Of a DNA stretch of 41,488 bases, positions 11,568 through 37,500 are shown one piece after another. Made by a program: the position numbers and the translations under genes. Under the pieces are notes generated by a model, which had not been told where the DNA came from, did no database searches, and was given only the letters and a program-made list of their open reading frames with translations. The DNA is from a virus (Duplodnaviria; Caudoviricetes). The stretch lies in the IMG/VR virus record IMGVR_UViG_3300032277_002045, positions 1 to 41,488 of that record; one strand, written 5' to 3'. How positions within the stretch are numbered: the stretch's first letter is position 1; each line of letters opens with the position of its first letter.

Positions 11568-11604
11568 ATATGAATAGTTCATTTGAATTAAAAACCAACA
11601 AAAT

Positions 11605-12879
11605 ATGAGTGATAATACAAACAACGTGGAAACCACAGTAGAAAAAGTAAATATTGATATTGATGAAGTCTTTGGGGCTGGAGTAGATAATGTAACTCTA
11701 CCTGAAGAAGAATCAAAACCTGGCATTTTAGATAGAGTAAATCCTGATCCAGATTTTACGTTTACAGAAGAAGTTAAAAAAGAAGACTGGATGGAGAATG
11801 AAGATGTGGTTACTCCAGAAAAAATAACTAAAAAAACTGAAGCTGGTATTAAAGCCGAAGGTGGAGAAATAATTGACGATCTTGAGGATAATTCTGAATT
11901 GGAAAATAATGAAGATACAGTAAAAGAAGAGACAAGAGGTAGAAAGCAAATAAATGGATTTACAGATGTCATTAATAAAATGGTAAAATCTGATAAGCTG
12001 TTTGCTTTTGATGATGATAAACCTTTGGACGAATATAGCGCAAAAGATATTGAAGAATTGCTTGACGCAAATATGGAAGAAGTTAAAAATCAAGTTAGAA
12101 GGGAAACACCTAAACAATTTTTTGAAGCTCTTCCGAATGAATTAAAAGTAGCAGCTCAATATGTAGCTGATGGTGGCACAGATCTTAAAAGTTTATTTAA
12201 AACTTTAGCTCAAGCTGAAGATACTTTTGAAATAGATGCTTCTAATGAATCAGGACAAGAAAGAATTATTGTAGAATATCTTACAAGTACAGGATATGGT
12301 ACACCTGATGAGATTGCAGAAGAAATAGAAATATGGAAAGACTTAGGAAAACTTGAGCAACAAGCAATGAAGTTTAAACCTAAGTTAGATAAAATGCAAG
12401 AAAAAGTTGTAGCTCAAAAATTACAACAACAACAGCTTAAGCAAAAGCAACAAGCAGATGCATCTAAACAATATATGGATAATGTATACCATACTCTAAA
12501 AGAAGGAGCTTTATCTGGAATGAAATTAGATAAAAAAACACAATCATTATTATATAATGGTTTAGTTCAACCTGCATATCCATCAGTGAGTGGTAAAAAT
12601 ACAAACTTGTTAGGACACTTATTAGAAAAGTATCAATTTCAAGAACCTAATTATACTTTAATCTCAGAAGCCCTTTGGTTATTAGCAGATCCGAGAGGAT
12701 ATAAGTCTAAGATAATGGAGATGGGAGCTCAAAAGAATACTGAGAAAGTAGTTAGAAAGCTTAAGATGGAACAATCTAATAAAGGAACTGCTTCTTTAGG
12801 TGTAGCAGAAAAAGAGAAATCAACAAAAACATCTAAAAGAAAAATAGCCAAACCAACAAATATTTTCAAACGGATTTAA
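11605..12879 (+). CDS. Putative capsid scaffolding/assembly protein (position of crAssphage gene 77 homologues)
   Basis: Highly acidic N-terminal half, coiled-coil middle, basic C-terminus; lies between the portal and MCP. Confidence 0.6.
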   Translation: MSDNTNNVETTVEKVNIDIDEVFGAGVDNVTLPEEESKPGILDRVNPDPDFTFTEEVKKEDWMENEDVVTPEKITKKTEAGIKAEGGEIIDDLEDNSELENNEDTVKEETRGRKQINGFTDVINKMVKSDKLFAFDDDKPLDEYSAKDIEELLDANMEEVKNQVRRETPKQFFEALPNELKVAAQYVADGGTDLKSLFKTLAQAEDTFEIDASNESGQERIIVEYLTSTGYGTPDEIAEEIEIWKDLGKLEQQAMKFKPKLDKMQEKVVAQKLQQQQLKQKQQADASKQYMDNVYHTLKEGALSGMKLDKKTQSLLYNGLVQPAYPSVSGKNTNLLGHLLEKYQFQEPNYTLISEALWLLADPRGYKSKIMEMGAQKNTEKVVRKLKMEQSNKGTASLGVAEKEKSTKTSKRKIAKPTNIFKRI

Positions 12880-14557: not shown

Positions 14558-14588
14558 AAGGGGGAGTTAATTCTCCCCTTTTTTGTTT
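14558..14588 (+). terminator. Intrinsic terminator after the MCP gene
   Basis: AAGGGGGAG-TTAATT-CTCCCCTT followed by TTTTGTTT. Confidence 0.9.
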
Positions 14589-16007: not shown

Positions 16008-16086
16008 TTAGAAATATTAATTGATAACGTGCATAATTATGTACATTTGAGTGATGATTAATAATTTATAAAAACCAATAAAAAAA

Positions 16087-17103
16087 ATGGAAGATTACAC
16101 AATTGTAGAAAAGTATCAGCAAGGTAAAGATAGTACTGTTGCCATACGCCCTTATTTTAATCCAGATAGAGAAAACATGGGGTTAGAAACTTATGGAATG
16201 TCACTTCATGAAGGAGTATGGCACCAAGAATCATTAGCCTGTTTAGAGCTAAATGGAATTAAAAGATATGTTACTGGATTAAATGAATTTGCTCCTGAAA
16301 TAAAAAAATTATCTCCAGGAGAAAGAGAGCTTAAAGTAAAAGAGATTAGAAAGACTGTAGCTCAATTAGAGGCTGAACTTGCAGCTAATATAATTGACCC
16401 GGAAGATAAAGACTTTTGGAATAAGGTTACATTGCTAAAACCAGATAATGATGCATTTTGGTCTAGAATAGAACTTAGATGTGGAAATGAACCTGTATTT
16501 TTAGATCCTACAAAAGATCCTTATGATCTGATTAAGATACATGCAATTAATGCAGGAGGATTTTCAATGATATCTAAGTCACTTAAAGCTGCTAAAAAAT
16601 CACCTAATCCTAAGAAGTTTTATTTAGATCAATCAGATGAAACTATATCTACTAGAACAGAATATACTAAATTAAAAAATAAAGCTCTTGTTAAATTAGA
16701 GGAAATGCATTCTAAAAATTTAACAAAACTTATGTATGTTGCAAAAGTTGTTGATGCTGATAGTGTGCAGTATTCTAAATCAACACAAGCAGATATTATT
16801 TATGAAAACATGGACGCGTTCATAAATGGAAATGGAACTGAATCAAGTAAAAAACGCGCAGCTACATCTTTTATTGATGCGGCAAATGATACAATGAAAA
16901 GTTTAAAACTAAGAGCATTAGTAAAAGATGCAATGTTTTACAGATTTATATTGGTGAAATCTAATGGATTTATTGAACCTTTAGATAATAGCATTAGGCT
17001 TGGTAAAGTTCCAAGTGAAGTTGTATCATTTTTACAAAGTGCAGAGAATGATGAAATATTAAAATCTTTATTAGAAAAGGTTGAACCTTACTGGAATGCA
17101 TAA
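16087..17103 (+). CDS. Conserved capsid-module protein (position of crAssphage gene 75 homologues)
   Basis: 338 aa; called from size and position in the crAss-like capsid block. Confidence 0.5.
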   Translation: MEDYTIVEKYQQGKDSTVAIRPYFNPDRENMGLETYGMSLHEGVWHQESLACLELNGIKRYVTGLNEFAPEIKKLSPGERELKVKEIRKTVAQLEAELAANIIDPEDKDFWNKVTLLKPDNDAFWSRIELRCGNEPVFLDPTKDPYDLIKIHAINAGGFSMISKSLKAAKKSPNPKKFYLDQSDETISTRTEYTKLKNKALVKLEEMHSKNLTKLMYVAKVVDADSVQYSKSTQADIIYENMDAFINGNGTESSKKRAATSFIDAANDTMKSLKLRALVKDAMFYRFILVKSNGFIEPLDNSIRLGKVPSEVVSFLQSAENDEILKSLLEKVEPYWNA

Positions 17104-17810: not shown

Positions 17811-17836
17811 ATTTTATTGGTTTATTAAAAAAAGTT

Positions 17837-17848
17837 TTTGTATATTAT
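17837..17848 (+). promoter_or_regulatory. Putative late promoter TTTGTATATTAT
   Basis: Exact motif copy, followed by hairpin TGTCC-AAAGA-GGACA (17852-17866). Confidence 0.7.
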
Positions 17849-17898
17849 ATATGTCCAAAGAGGACAAATTGTATTTCTAAATTAAAAAATAAAAAAAA

Positions 17899-19469: not shown

Positions 19470-20027
19470 ATGGCTGAAAAGCATATTTTAAGTTTAGAAC
19501 TTCCTACTGTAGCAAATTGTGAAATCTTGTCTATAAAAGATACAAGTCAGTATTCTGATATTGTATCAAAAGATTGCCCTGAACTTCTTATTACAGTACC
19601 GGGTTTTAATAATCCTACACTAATAGAGGTTACTCCAGGATTTGATTTAAATTTAGCAGGATGTGATCTTAAAATACAAACTACAGCTTGTGGTGAAGAA
19701 AACATAGCACTTCCAGATGGAGTATATGTAATAAGATATAGTTTATCACCAAATGATAAAGTATTTGTAGAATACAATTATTTACGTACAACAGCAATTT
19801 TAAATTTATATTACGAAGTATTGTGTGGATTAAATTTATCTGACTGTGAGCCTTCTTCTGATAAAGAAGATCTTATTTCAGAAATAAACTATCTACGTAT
19901 TTTAATTGACTCAGCAAAAGCTCAAGTTGAATATTGCCATAACCCTAGTAAAGGAATGTCAATGTATGATTATGCTTTAACTAGATTGAGAAAAATACTT
20001 TGTACTACATCACCTAGTAACTGTTAA
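19470..20027 (+). CDS. Putative tail/neck structural protein
   Basis: LPDGVYVIRYS Ig-like strand followed by a helical C-terminus; located in the structural block. Confidence 0.55.
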   Translation: MAEKHILSLELPTVANCEILSIKDTSQYSDIVSKDCPELLITVPGFNNPTLIEVTPGFDLNLAGCDLKIQTTACGEENIALPDGVYVIRYSLSPNDKVFVEYNYLRTTAILNLYYEVLCGLNLSDCEPSSDKEDLISEINYLRILIDSAKAQVEYCHNPSKGMSMYDYALTRLRKILCTTSPSNC

Positions 20028-20037
20028 AACCAATAAT

Positions 20038-20211
20038 ATGAAATGTGTAAGTTGTAATAAAGGATTTTCTTGTGGTTGTCAAAAGACAAAAGCTAAAGAC
20101 GGAAGTACAGTGCATAAATCATGTCTTAGTAAATATAATGGTACTATTAATCAACCAGCTAATAGGTTAACTAATAGCATCAATAAAGCTAAGTCTAATT
20201 TAGTAAAATAA
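20038..20211 (+). CDS. 57-aa zinc-finger-like protein (not in the ORF track): MKCVSCNKGFSCGCQKTKAKDGSTVHKSCLSKYNGTINQPANRLTNSINKAKSNLVK
   Basis: AAAACCAATAAT directly before the ATG; CxxC...CxC...HxxC; stop overlaps the next start (TAATG at 20209-20213). Confidence 0.8.
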   Translation: MKCVSCNKGFSCGCQKTKAKDGSTVHKSCLSKYNGTINQPANRLTNSINKAKSNLVK

Positions 20212-24081: not shown

Positions 24082-24633
24082 ATGGCTTGTAATTGTAATA
24101 AATGTAACCCAGCTAAACCATGTGGTTGTTCTGATCCAGCAATAAGTAATCCTTGTACTTATAGTGATTGCAGTGTAGGAAGTGAAAGATGTGCCACGGT
24201 ATGTTGCACAGAATGTGTTAGCTATTGCGGAACTACTTTTCAAGTAGGTACTGCCGGAAGCATTATAAAAATTGAAACAGGAGAAAGATTAGATTCAATA
24301 ATTCAAAAAATGGCTTTAATGATGAGTCAGGGAATTGGAGGATGTACATCAGATGATTTACATCATGCTCCGTATAATGTTTATGCTGCTAATATAACAT
24401 CTAATTCTGCAGTTATATTGTGGAATAGTGAATCTACAGCAACAGCTCAAATAGAAGTATTTGCAGATTCTGGGTTAGGTTATGTATCACAGGGAATTGT
24501 TGGACCTACAGTATTGCAATTAGCAATATCTAGTCTTACTACAGCAACTGACTATAAAGTTAAATTAGTCTCTACAGATTCTCTTGCAGCTACCTGCGAT
24601 AGTGTGGAAATTTTATTTACAACATTACTATAA
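24082..24633 (+). CDS. Cys-rich structural protein with a C-terminal FN3-like domain
   Basis: 12 Cys in the first 49 residues; APYNVYAANITSNSAVILW...LTTATDYKVKL is FN3-like. Confidence 0.65.
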   Translation: MACNCNKCNPAKPCGCSDPAISNPCTYSDCSVGSERCATVCCTECVSYCGTTFQVGTAGSIIKIETGERLDSIIQKMALMMSQGIGGCTSDDLHHAPYNVYAANITSNSAVILWNSESTATAQIEVFADSGLGYVSQGIVGPTVLQLAISSLTTATDYKVKLVSTDSLAATCDSVEILFTTLL

Positions 24634-24637
24634 CAGA

Positions 24638-24701
24638 GGTGATAATTTGTTGGTTTTTTATTACCAAAGTTGTGAAGCCCAGTTAATTCTGGGCTTTTTT
24701 T
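24638..24701 (+). ncRNA. Candidate antisense small RNA: stem-loop exposing UUUGUUGGUUUU, followed by a terminator
   Basis: Stem GGTGATAA (24638-45) / TTATTACC (24658-65). The loop is the reverse complement of AAAACCAACAAA at 11591-11602. Confidence 0.45.
24675..24701 (+). terminator. Intrinsic terminator
   Basis: AAGCCCAG-TTAATT-CTGGGCTT followed by TTTTT. Confidence 0.9.
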
Positions 24702-24737
24702 GCTTAAATCATTATATTTATATACAAAATTAAAATC

Positions 24738-25940
24738 ATGAATAAATTAGAACGTCTAGTAGAAGAGTCAAAATATTGGAAAAGAGATCCGGAATACTGC
24801 GCAAAAAGAATTGGCATATCTATAGAAGAATTTATAAAAATTAGAAAAAATGTAAAATCTAAAAGGAAAGCTCAAAGAAAATCTAATGCTAATATTTCAG
24901 TAAATATTGAAAAAGGTGAAGCTAGATTTGAAGGTAAATCTACAAAAGAACCAAAAGATGCAAACGAAATAATAAATCTTTTAAAAATAGATACAACTAA
25001 ATGGAAGCTTTCTCAGTACTGGAATAAACAAATGTCAGATCACTGGCGTATATCTGCTCTAGTTACTAAAATTAAAGAATCAGATATAGATCATTTAGAA
25101 GAACTAATTCATAAATGGAAACCCAAAAAATATAAAATACCAAAGCTATCAATATCAAAAGGATATTCATTAAGTCCTGACAGAGAAGTTGTATGTGGTG
25201 TAATGTCACTTCAGGATATTCATTTTGGAAAAGAAGGTAATGAAACAATAGATAAAGATTTTGAAGATACCGTTCAAAATCTTATGAAAAGAGGAATTGC
25301 AGTACATAATATAGAAGAATTATTTTTTGTTGTAGGAGGTGATTTAATTAACATGGATACATTTCACGGTACAACTACAAGCGGAACTCCTCTAGATAAT
25401 TGTAGTACAGCAACAGAAGCATATATCCAAGCATTTGATGCAATGATATGGGCCATTACGTTTATACTTTCGTATGTCAAGCATTTAACTATAGTATATG
25501 TACCGGGTAATCATGATAGATTATCATCATTTCATTTAGTACACGCGTTATCTAAAGCTATAGATTCTGATCAAATAACATGGGATATCAAATATGAAGA
25601 AAGAAAAGTCCATGTATGGCATGATAACTTTAATGCCTTTGAACATGGAGATGCTGTAAGCAAAAATACACCAATTGTTTATGCAACAGAGTTTGCTAAG
25701 GAATGGGGCTATACTAAAAATAGAACTTTATATACAGGCCATTTTCATCAAAATAAAAAAATAGAATATATAACAACTGCAGAAACAGCAGGATTTATAC
25801 ATAAGACATTACCTAGCTTATCTAAGACAGATTATTACCATTATCATAAAAAATATGTTGGTAATAGAAGATCTGGTAAACTAGAATTGCAATCACCTTC
25901 TAAAGGTAATATTTGTGAACTTACTTATTTAGCGGATTAA
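24738..25940 (+). CDS. Calcineurin-like metallophosphoesterase with an N-terminal extension
   Basis: All five motifs present: DIH, GD, GNHD, H(GD), GHFH. Confidence 0.9.
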   Translation: MNKLERLVEESKYWKRDPEYCAKRIGISIEEFIKIRKNVKSKRKAQRKSNANISVNIEKGEARFEGKSTKEPKDANEIINLLKIDTTKWKLSQYWNKQMSDHWRISALVTKIKESDIDHLEELIHKWKPKKYKIPKLSISKGYSLSPDREVVCGVMSLQDIHFGKEGNETIDKDFEDTVQNLMKRGIAVHNIEELFFVVGGDLINMDTFHGTTTSGTPLDNCSTATEAYIQAFDAMIWAITFILSYVKHLTIVYVPGNHDRLSSFHLVHALSKAIDSDQITWDIKYEERKVHVWHDNFNAFEHGDAVSKNTPIVYATEFAKEWGYTKNRTLYTGHFHQNKKIEYITTAETAGFIHKTLPSLSKTDYYHYHKKYVGNRRSGKLELQSPSKGNICELTYLAD

Positions 25941-34598: not shown

Positions 34599-37500
34599 GA
34601 AATAAATATGCAGAAATAATAAAAGGACTACCCGGTGGGCCAAATGAGAACCTAAGTTTTCCGTCAGGTTGGGGTTACTCTAGCTTAGGATATAAAAGAA
34701 ATAGTCCTGATATAAATAACCCATTTAATATAATTCCATCTGGGAGAATAACAATGAAAGATGTAGATTTTCCTATTACAGGTATAGATGATTTAGGTAA
34801 TGAAAAGTTAATGTTTCCAGGTAATGAATATGAATTTCCAGGAAGCGAAGTATTTGAGCTTCCCCATAAAGAACATCGTAGTTTGGAATGGGAAGGTAGA
34901 CCTTTAATTTCCAATGATGGATTTGAAGGTTTTGAGGGTGGATTTCATTCTAAATATTTAGATATGCATGCGACTTACCGCAAGCCACTTCAAATGATAG
35001 GTGATGGGCACTTATCATTAACTGGTCATTTAAGTACAGGACCTAATGAATTTTCATTTACACCTTCTGTACATATAGGCGGCCATGGTCCTGAGTTTGG
35101 AATCAACATTGGATTTAAACATAGTTTTCAACCGGGTGGAGAAACTGGTGGAATGGGAGATCCTGATATGTTAGATTTTTATTATCATTATATGAATTCC
35201 GATAAATATAAAGAAAGATTAAAATCTTCAGGTTATGCTAATCCGCAGGAAATAGCAGGTAAACGTCAAAACTCTCACTTTAACACAAAGATACATTATA
35301 AAGATGAAGTTCCTGGCAATTGGAATGCGTTTATGGATATTTTACAAGGAAGACCTACCAACGCGAGTGGATCTTCTTACATTCCGGGTGATAAAATGGG
35401 TGAAACAACAACCGGTGATATATTAGTATATGATGGTCAGGCAGACTTAGAAGGTACAACATCGGGGGATATTGAAAGACATGAGCGTGCTCACGCAATG
35501 GTTCAAGATGCTGAATTAAATGATTATGATCAAAGGCAGTTTTCTGAAAGAGAAACAGAATCTAGTAGAAATAAAGGGTATAGACACGGAAAGAAAATAC
35601 CTATTGGCAATCAGCAACTTGAGGAAAGTTATGCAGATATGACCGGATTAAGATATACTATTTTTGATGAGTTAGGTATAGATGCTACAAAAGATATTAC
35701 TGATGAGGACATGTCTAAAATACAAAATTTAATTAAAGACAGTAAGTACAAATCAGCTAAAAGATTATTTGATGCTTACTCTCCGGAAGATATTAAATGG
35801 ATGTTAAATAATATTGCCAGCAATCAAAGCGCTTCTTCAGATCAAATGCAAATGGCTCAAGACGGGGATGAAATAAATTTTTATTCACCAGAACCAATAG
35901 ATAATACTTATGTAGATCAAAGTATTTTAAATAACCAGCTTACACCATTTAGATCTTTTGCACACCTTACTTATGAAGAACAAATGGCATTAATAAAAAA
36001 TCAGAAAATTGAAGCTGCAATGCGCCTTTTGAGAAGGAGCAGTACGGACAATAATAATGATGATATAATGTATGATTTTAATTCACAAAATGTTCCTATA
36101 ATATTCCAAGACGGGGATGAGGTAACTGGTGTAAATCCGGGATCAGGATATGATACAGATCATAAAATACAATATGTAGATACAGACAAAGAGTTTAATA
36201 CGGGATTTGAAACTCAAGATAGGATGCTTAAAGAAGCTATGGCAACGTATAAGCAATCTATGTTAAGTCAATCTGGTGCTACAGCGCATGCTCCTGAAGA
36301 ACCTGGTATTCCTAGTGGTGGTATTGGCGATAATGATGGAGGAGGACCTCCTGAATTTACTAAGTGGGAAGAAAAACATGGAGATTGGGATGGTCATACT
36401 TGGGTTCCAGACGAAAGATTTAAAGGTATTAAAGGAGCAATAGACAATATTGGTACTAGAAGACAAGCTAGAAAAGATTTTAGATCAGCTCATCCTAAAA
36501 CTGAACAAAGAAGGTTTGATAAGTGGAATAGGGCTGGTAATATATTTAGAAAAAGAGATGACAAAATAAGAAACAAGCCTGAAGCATTTAGAGAATATCA
36601 CCCAAGAGTAGGCACAGATCAAGAAGGTAATAATCTACGTCACTGGTCAAATATGTGGATGGGAGTAAGAGATAAAAGTCAGTTTGATGATTTTAACTTC
36701 TTTAAAAACAATAAACCCTTCAAACAAGATGGCGGAGAAAATGAACAATATGCTAATGCTTATTTAAATGATCTTTATATATCATCAGATGATTTAACTT
36801 ATCTAAATCATGAAGATGCTTTAGATTTAAATCTTTTACCTAAAGAAAAATGGAATGATAAAGTGTGGGTAGATCAAGATGGTGAAGATAAGGAAATGAG
36901 CTATGAAGAAATAGCAGATTACTATGACGGAACTATTCCCTGGGATATGTTAAATACTTCGGATAAACACTACTCTAATGAATATTATTGTGATCCTAGC
37001 AAAGGTTGTTTAGCTAGTTCTTTTGATGCCTATGATCAAGTGATTGGTCAAAAATATCCATCAACAGATTTTTTATCTGAGGCAAAGCTAAAAAATGAAA
37101 TGAACTTGCAAAGTTTACAGGGATACACAGTTGAAGAACGTTCTGACGGAACAAAGATTTTTATAGATCCTAATGGAAATCAAGTAAGTGATAGAACTAA
37201 ACAGTGGATTGAAAGTATTCCTTATTTTCAATCAGGTGACAACTATGATTTTACAGCAGATAGTTGGGATATACATGGCGTCACTGTAGATAGAGGTGGT
37301 AAAAATATATTTACAGGCGGAAAAGATTATAGCTATGATACTGATGAATACCAGAATCAAGATGATATGGCAGATTTTTCTACTTTAAGTGATTCAGAAA
37401 AACAAGCAATATATGCTCAAATGACTCCAGGTACAATTGTTGGATTTGGAAAATATAATCTTGGAGAGAATCAAAAATATGGTTTAACTGGATCTGGACA

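Follow-up and report, generated by a model that had tools for sequence, protein, structure and literature searches.

Among described systems, the closest to the locus analysed here are OppZ and CarZ of Vibrio cholerae, RNAs from an operon 3' end that base-pair to inhibit translation in a negative feedback; according to the available part of the source (PMC7398697), they are processed by RNase E, are experimentally shown, act in a host with Hfq and Shine-Dalgarno (SD)-led initiation and target their own operon. Our element is likewise a putative 3'-end RNA, predicted to pair with messages of the same programme, but it is phage-borne, has its seed in a hairpin loop, has its main targets predicted on other transcripts and is known from sequence alone. 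GcvB, in turn, silences ACA/CA-rich translation enhancers, as outlined in PMC3879156. It shares with our element a G/U-rich seed and A/C-rich leader elements of several mRNAs, but is a stand-alone, Hfq-dependent enterobacterial sRNA, whereas the element described here has no Rfam match and its predicted targets have no SD sequence. To our knowledge, Bacteroidota lack Hfq.

Antisense RNAs that initiate pairing from a loop with a YUNR U-turn include hok/Sok, pIP501 RNAIII and SR4/SR5, according to the part of PMC6562991 available. Our loop contains such a YUNR sequence (UUGG), the U-turn itself being a prediction; while those RNAs are cis-encoded and have long, full complementarity, the predicted pairing here is 8-17 nt long, in trans and with several targets. 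Post-transcriptional tuning of scaffold synthesis is known from phage P22, where the scaffolding protein exerts autogenous translational control and is itself the regulator; here, the regulator is predicted to be an RNA. The c4 antisense RNA of phages P1 and P7 serves immunity control in temperate phages and is, as predicted for our element, a structured phage RNA that pairs in trans via short exposed stretches, but our element has no match in Rfam.

No published description of the element was found in a literature search with subscription journals and bioRxiv supplements outside its scope, and a Crassvirales review, in its available part, mentions no non-coding or small RNA. The loop strings are absent from four supplements of Fremin 2023 (PMC10690425), whose alignments are probably in its other files, and the hairpin may be among the unnamed candidates of that study.

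The phage, its late module and its relatives

The window, that is the whole stretch of 41,488 nucleotides analysed, comes from an uncultured crAss-like phage and represents its late structural module, with genes for terminase (6511), portal (8691) and major capsid protein (12926) and ring and tail genes beyond. The gene order terminase-portal-scaffold-capsid-conserved gene-ring is present with homologous proteins, which places the phage among the crAss-like (Crassvirales-related) phages. Relatives in IMG/VR have genome sizes of about 110-135 kb. Named phages are distant: the portal protein has 22-33% identity to those of crAss-like phages, and the capsid protein has 28% identity to that of Lbo-JY46 (PP438436) and 26% to that of Cellulophaga phage phi17:2, both of which database records file outside the order Crassvirales. 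IMG/VR searches with proteins of these two phages returned no further relatives.

The phage leaders are A-rich and G-poor and resemble those of two flavobacterial samples, from which we infer a Bacteroidota host.

The sequence TGTATATTAT / TGTAAATTAT recurs 20-45 nt before late ORFs (in the window at about 765, 11560, 17840, 19440, 20445, 24712, 25980 and 38890) and also in relatives, with TAAATTA in all 21 leaders of the 25999 family; it is a probable late promoter, unlike the Bacteroidota consensus TAnnTTTG. Right after this late-promoter-like motif, the leader of gene 17899 has a small hairpin in the window (17840-17875) and in relatives, with an apparently covarying stem (TGTCC/GGACA in the window; GTAAC/GTTAC and GTAGC/GCTAC in relatives).

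A conserved hairpin in the 3' UTR of a late gene

An earlier note on this DNA had described an 8-bp stem with one G-U pair, a 12-nt loop and a terminator, and its coordinates check: the stem arms GGTGATAA (24638-24645, + strand) and TTATTACC (24658-24665) enclose the loop UUUGUUGGUUUU (24646-24657), the predicted pairing seed, and an intrinsic-terminator-like hairpin (24674-24697) with a T run follows, up to position 24701. The predicted fold of 24620-24720 agrees with this hairpin (z = -3.46). A short outer stem (AAC 24632-24634 / GTT 24669-24671) is possible; in relatives its counterpart ACAAC ... GTTG matches loosely in 46 of 52 rows and is missing from the RNAalifold consensus. The stem begins 4 nt past the stop codon of a 183-aa gene (24082-24633, + strand) and no promoter fits between, so that the RNA would be made with the late transcript. 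The element is located in a 3' UTR and uses the same intrinsic terminator as the operon, and the same is true for its counterparts in a freshwater clade, Lbo-JY46 and phi17:2 (see below).

Conservation was examined in the best 80 of 182 IMG/VR loci for the metallophosphoesterase-like gene downstream of the element (24738-25940, + strand), which have 58-81% identity and include many near-copies. This gene serves as a marker only: the hairpin remains behind the 183-aa gene in L089, L090 and L101, where the metallophosphoesterase gene is not adjacent, and no such gene was found in four near-complete genomes of the freshwater clade or at the corresponding place in phi17:2. Hairpin and terminator were found without anchoring in 78 of the 80 loci, and the remaining two end at contig ends. 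An alignment anchored on TTGGT has 52 distinct rows. Both sides vary in seven of the eight stem pairs, and 89.6% of the paired cells can pair, a level that none of 500 shuffles reached (a control that ignores relatedness) and that compares with 31-71% in slid controls; the RNAalifold consensus recovers the same helix. The stem covaries while the loop core stays near-fixed: the loop 12-mer is exact in 44 rows, GTTGGTT is present in 50 and UUGG in all 52, and it is only a core of 7-8 nt that is held. The near-invariant loop with a covarying stem beside a terminator, which the earlier note had proposed to look for in relatives, is thus present. The terminator is kept in relatives too, with varying sequence. 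Three distant genomes (G045, G047 and G052) and two additional records (L329 and L405) retain the loop core before a terminator in very different stems, and their leaders retain AACCAA.

The stem cells of the 52 rows contain 65 G-U and no A-C combinations, which points to an RNA structure of the + strand. That the loop is no start site of the opposite strand had been argued in the earlier note from the window and holds in the relatives: of 52 hairpins, only 3 have a minus-strand ATG after the box.

No Rfam family matched the window at gathering score and none matched four distant loci; the best match by E-value, ar15, reached 22.7 bits against a cut-off of 40 and was driven by the terminator. 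In a 144-nt context, five bases in the core of the window's loop are predicted to be only 31-48% unpaired, and the local fold closes the loop in 14 locus rows. A search for expression found two sequencing runs with small shares (0.07 and 0.05); these are contig-level matches, which give neither ends nor strand of an RNA.

A scan of GTDB returned five stretches: the phage hairpin and terminator are present in four of them, and the fifth is a reversed leader. The hairpin and terminator contigs L287, L288, L289 and L291 lie within bins assigned to Flavobacteriales, Lacinutrix, Gammaproteobacteria and Pseudomonadales and are probably co-binned phage DNA. We rejected them as host copies of the hairpin; with two flavobacterial and two gammaproteobacterial bins they do not fix the host.

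Complementary boxes at translation starts

Within the window, the complementary sequence AAAACCAA is only modestly above chance, with nine copies against 3.6 expected (about 2.5-fold; 2 of 100 shuffles reach nine), and the case therefore rests on the relatives. Leaders were collected with a simple script that takes the first ATG and was run on 20-kb pieces of the window and 20 relatives, which means that some starts are wrong and genes crossing the borders are lost. AAACCAA is the most enriched 7-mer of these leaders: 105 of 1843 phage leaders contain it no more than 25 nt before the start codon, compared to 6 in a control stretch farther upstream and 10.5 expected from column shuffles. The enrichment at starts that the earlier note had suggested to count is thus evident.

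All 20 homologues of the scaffold-like gene are preceded by the box, in most cases in the form AAAACCAAC, and so are 20 of 21 homologues of gene 16087; the box is less regular before the 20038 ORF (11 of 16) and the 1998 family (8 of 19), and the leaders of the capsid gene family lack it. The box has its CC at -12 to -7 in almost every leader of the scaffold gene and of gene 16087. When leaders are ranked by pairing with the loop of the window, the scaffold leader is first in 15 of 23 genomes and among the top five in all 23, while the median rank of the capsid leader is 23.

The earlier note had proposed a regulon of several mRNAs. What stands of it are the conserved targets 11605 and 16087, the less conserved 20038 and, in some relatives, the 1998 family; the capsid gene and the early-strand boxes drop out. 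The 12850-12860 match, which the note placed upstream of the capsid gene start, was rejected as a capsid gene target: it lies inside the scaffold frame (codons K-P-T-N), and of 67 distinct homologues only 2 have AAACCAAC within their final 48 nt. A regulon for shut-off of early genes was not adopted, as the early-strand boxes are not kept between orthologues (at best 5 of 15); they occur in 36 of 832 leaders of close relatives, in 1 of 123 leaders of three distant genomes with the same loop and in 1 of 224 of the freshwater clade. The minus-strand ORF at 117 is only 20 codons long and had no hits among 1980 predicted proteins. A further complement at 17813-17824 was discarded (kept in 0 of 75 relatives).

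The box is also not supported as a general leader motif of the host: AAACCAA is present in 2 of 332 flavobacterial leaders (two samples), and TAAAACCAA-ATG has at most 41 matches in any one of 41 Bacteroidota genomes.

The boxes hold their orientation and a fixed distance to the start codon. This is difficult to reconcile with boxes that are orientation-independent DNA sites, or with a hairpin of single-stranded DNA, in the role of a promoter, packaging or replication signal. Such DNA sites would fit with the RNA polymerase that crAss-like phages bring in their virion, according to the available part of PMC10136315, but the G-U excess in the stem indicates + strand RNA and the hairpin abuts a terminator, and we consider this reading very improbable.

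Predicted target genes

Of the pairing sites of the loop listed in the earlier note, the three before the following genes are as described. The main predicted target box, AAAACCAACAAA (11591-11602, + strand), ends 2 nt before the ATG of a gene (11605-12879) that is located between the portal and the major capsid genes and encodes an acidic protein of 424 aa (19% D+E). The protein has no PHROG or Pfam hit; its position and composition suggest that it is the scaffold. The second box, AAAACCAATAAA (16071-16082, + strand), precedes a gene downstream of the capsid gene (16087-17103) for a conserved crAss-like protein of 338 aa. No Pfam or PHROG match and no PDB match at E <= 0.001 was found for this protein, and its structure model (pLDDT 77.8) matches S0A085 of phi14:2 (294 aa, E 5e-8) and other crAss-like proteins. 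Gp065 of phi17:2 is linked to it by position (hhalign E 0.46, HMM E 0.019). A third, less conserved box (20026-20037, + strand) is found before a Cys-rich ORF of 57 aa (20038-20211).

All predicted targets are on the same strand as the element, at distances of 4.6-13 kb, and match it over 8-12 nt. The three target leaders are predicted to be mostly open (67-86% unpaired).

Among the genes g087-g093 of phi14:2, only the two that flank the capsid gene have no virion MS/MS note, and S0A085 is equal in length to g090; in phi17:2, the counterparts of the targets are annotated as 'hypothetical' amid structural genes. Both main targets are probably non-virion head-assembly proteins. The analysis singles out an unstudied post-capsid gene as a putative co-regulated partner of the scaffold gene.

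Parallel changes of element and leaders across lineages

Eleven loci form a freshwater clade (SH-aLRT 99 in a quick tree of gene 16087) that has only the terminator at the usual place of the hairpin, as read in four genomes, and whose scaffold and 16087 leaders are purine-rich (GAAGAAGAAAAACC and AAAACAGAAG). In all five genomes examined, a different element, UUUAG(U)UGGUUUUUCUUCUUCUG, is found relocated: it precedes the last late terminator, at the far end of the late region, and follows a small basic ORF; the pattern is present in 19 IMG/VR stretches. With the scaffold leaders of its own 11 loci, this element pairs at -15.3 to -23.4 kcal/mol, compared to -1.2 to -12.2 kcal/mol with those of 67 other loci (the L211 leader in this comparison comes from a mis-called start). 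The leader of L334 is a perfect 17-nt complement. The match is shifted to about -35 to -12 in this clade. In four freshwater genomes, the scaffold leader has ranks 2, 3, 3 and 2 with the own element versus 9, 12, 4 and 25 with the loop of the window. The element is predicted to be partly paired in cis, with UUUUUCUUC left as a toehold, and may be convergent rather than homologous to the hairpin.

The small basic ORF, in whose 3' UTR the freshwater antisense element lies, encodes 47 aa rich in Lys/Arg (RPGVHAKTK...YKGQGR; G051:64583-64726, near the end of the late region) and is conserved in at least ten close relatives. Separately, this clade and its sister have a structured and conserved RNA, roughly 130-150 nt long, that is located between the genes for the capsid protein and the homologue of 16087, immediately before the predicted target leader (L331:9816-9950, and at the same place in L330, L333, L335, L336, L337, L340 and L342). 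It has covarying stems (CTCCTGAG/CTCAGGAG, CTCTCAA/TTGAGAG and CTTCTGA/TCAGAAG around AGTAACAGCCTTGACGTGG), in most cases an anti-SD-like CTCCACCTCCT at its 5' end, and no match in Rfam.

In Lbo-JY46, the sequence UUUGUUGGUUGUUUAUAU precedes a terminator and is located 350 nt upstream of the phosphoesterase homologue; the hairpin that it forms is weak. The two best of 158 leaders for this element are those of the post-capsid and the scaffold-like gene, which rank 14 and 49 with the loop of the window. The recorded host of Lbo-JY46 (L286, L406, L407) is Leptolyngbya, yet its structural genes are crAss-like and its leaders are A-rich and G-poor as in Bacteroidota; a Bacteroidota bacterium accompanying the culture may be the actual host.

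In phi17:2, an 11-bp stem with the loop UUUUUUGGUUUUU and a terminator (51407-51419 of record NC_021798, minus strand; z = -4.56) is syntenic with the element of the window: it lies directly before the homologue of window gene 26568 (neighbour homology E 5e-22). The first G is missing from this loop, and the leader of the post-capsid gene is AAAACCAAAAA; the two leaders rank 1 and 4 of 167 with the own loop, versus 11 and 7 with that of the window. Phage phi4:1 is 99.5% identical to phi17:2 across this stretch.

The reverse search was a blind scan, in which every non-coding 18-nt window of a genome was scored from the two leaders. The element came first in 9 of 12 genomes and second in two; in G014, it was outside the top four. 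In four freshwater genomes it was first by 5-13 kcal/mol and in Lbo-JY46 first of 9168 windows; in phi17:2 (139 of 145 kb read) it ranked fourth among 8861, with two tRNA windows and another window ahead of it. No comparable element was found in the 41-50 kb scanned of each of phi14:2, csAssE-Sib and PhiCrAssBcn1. The lineage shifts count as three events at most. The freshwater clade is one evolutionary event, and the matches of Lbo-JY46 and phi17:2 are A/U-rich and come from one genome each.

These comparisons bear on the possibility that there is no pairing at all, with AAACCAA a strong phage leader motif (an A-rich enhancer or a protein site), the loop a separate protein site and the complementarity a by-product of A/U-rich sequence. 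This would fit with boxes outside the four families, which precede unrelated genes and are not conserved between orthologues (47 of 1768 leaders), and with a mild excess of TAAAACCAA before ATG in the 41 Bacteroidota genomes (362 versus 218 reversed). Minor loop variants are mostly uncompensated: in six close relatives, the own loop pairs with the own scaffold leader better than that of the window in one case, equally well in one and worse in four. However, only 2 of 220 loop shuffles pair as well as the loop, one of them being the loop itself, and a mere by-product leaves unexplained why, in three other lineages, the element before a late terminator again ranks at or near the top as a complement of these two leaders although both sequences differ. 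We regard independent motifs as quite unlikely and pairing between loop and leader, in some form, as highly probable, judged from these comparisons. The duplexes are weak, at -7 to -13 kcal/mol with the opening cost omitted.

Two further features were seen in the relatives. G014 (110498), G015 (31601), G016 and G018, the latter two behind gene family 73, have a second TTGTTTGGTTTTAAAA on the late strand, which is unstructured, lies some 3 kb upstream of the hairpin and is closely followed by a late-promoter-like motif. On the minus strand of G050 (11300), TATATTTG, which fits the Bacteroidota -7 consensus, is followed by a U-rich stretch with TTTGGTTTTCTGTTTTG and a terminator, antisense to a gap of the early strand; this is a possible stand-alone small RNA.

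Proposed mechanism

Our preferred reading, held with moderate confidence, is a terminator-linked base-pairing RNA that would repress two head-assembly proteins late in infection while capsid synthesis continues. The RNA would accumulate with the late transcript, as mRNA 3' end or as a processed fragment. Its UUGG loop would nucleate a duplex of 8-12 bp that extends from about -14 to -3 relative to the start codon and would cover A-12/A-13, A-6 and A-3. Adenines at -3, -6, -12 and -13 promote initiation in Flavobacterium (F. johnsoniae), according to the available part of PMC6847099. The output of scaffold and 16087 would fall relative to that of the capsid protein, whose leader is boxless, and the result would be a delayed negative loop within the late programme. 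Inhibition of translation is likely, its direction being argued only from the predicted position of the duplex over -14 to -3.

Terminator-like hairpins at 14558 and 19384 intervene between the main targets and the hairpin, which suggests action in trans on 11605 and 16087. The same terminators argue against an effect on RNA fate, in which pairing would guide cleavage, protect the 5' ends of the scaffold and 16087 messages or join the 5' and 3' ends of a read-through transcript. The short scaffold leaders, with about 35-57 nt after a promoter-like TATATT, and the third box, which is in one apparent transcription unit with the hairpin, would suit such a role, but the freshwater element is located at the far end of the late region and the distance from box to start is fixed, and we consider an effect on RNA fate improbable.

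Every pairing result would suit activation as well as repression. The duplex, at the usual position of an SD sequence, or a protein borne by the hairpin, could load ribosomes where the anti-SD of the host is sequestered, and the CC of the box is placed where an SD sequence would be. A duplex that extends to -3 should, however, clash with the mRNA channel of the 30S subunit, which counts against activation. The target leaders are predicted to be mostly open already, so that there is no structure to relieve, the match of the freshwater clade is shifted upstream, and there is no conserved SD-like arm outside the terminator stem. In favour of activation, ribosomes of Bacteroidetes ignore SD sequences and have a sequestered anti-SD, as outlined in the available part of PMC7797042, and in PhiCrAssBcn1 the genes before and after the capsid gene have SD-like GGAG leaders (L410:32670-32696 and 35460-35486), in contrast to the capsid gene itself: the same two capsid-flanking genes are tagged there by another signal. 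On balance, we consider activation unlikely and keep repression as the preferred direction.

Significance

In its widest form, the proposal would be an RNA address system run by a lineage of Bacteroidota phages whose proteins have about 25% identity, with tags in selected late leaders and one terminator-linked reader that co-evolve like SD and anti-SD; in its boldest version, the RNA would replace the sequestered anti-SD and switch the tagged head-assembly genes on. We offer this as a speculation that is doubtful at present. Our literature search found no precedent for a lytic phage that controls the stoichiometry of virion assembly by base-pairing of its own RNA. Since the element is present in the cultured phages phi17:2 and phi4:1 of Cellulophaga baltica, both the pairing and its direction are directly testable. 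Conserved among widely diverged phages, the element varies jointly with its predicted targets, and it bears on how Bacteroidota tune translation without Shine-Dalgarno pairing.
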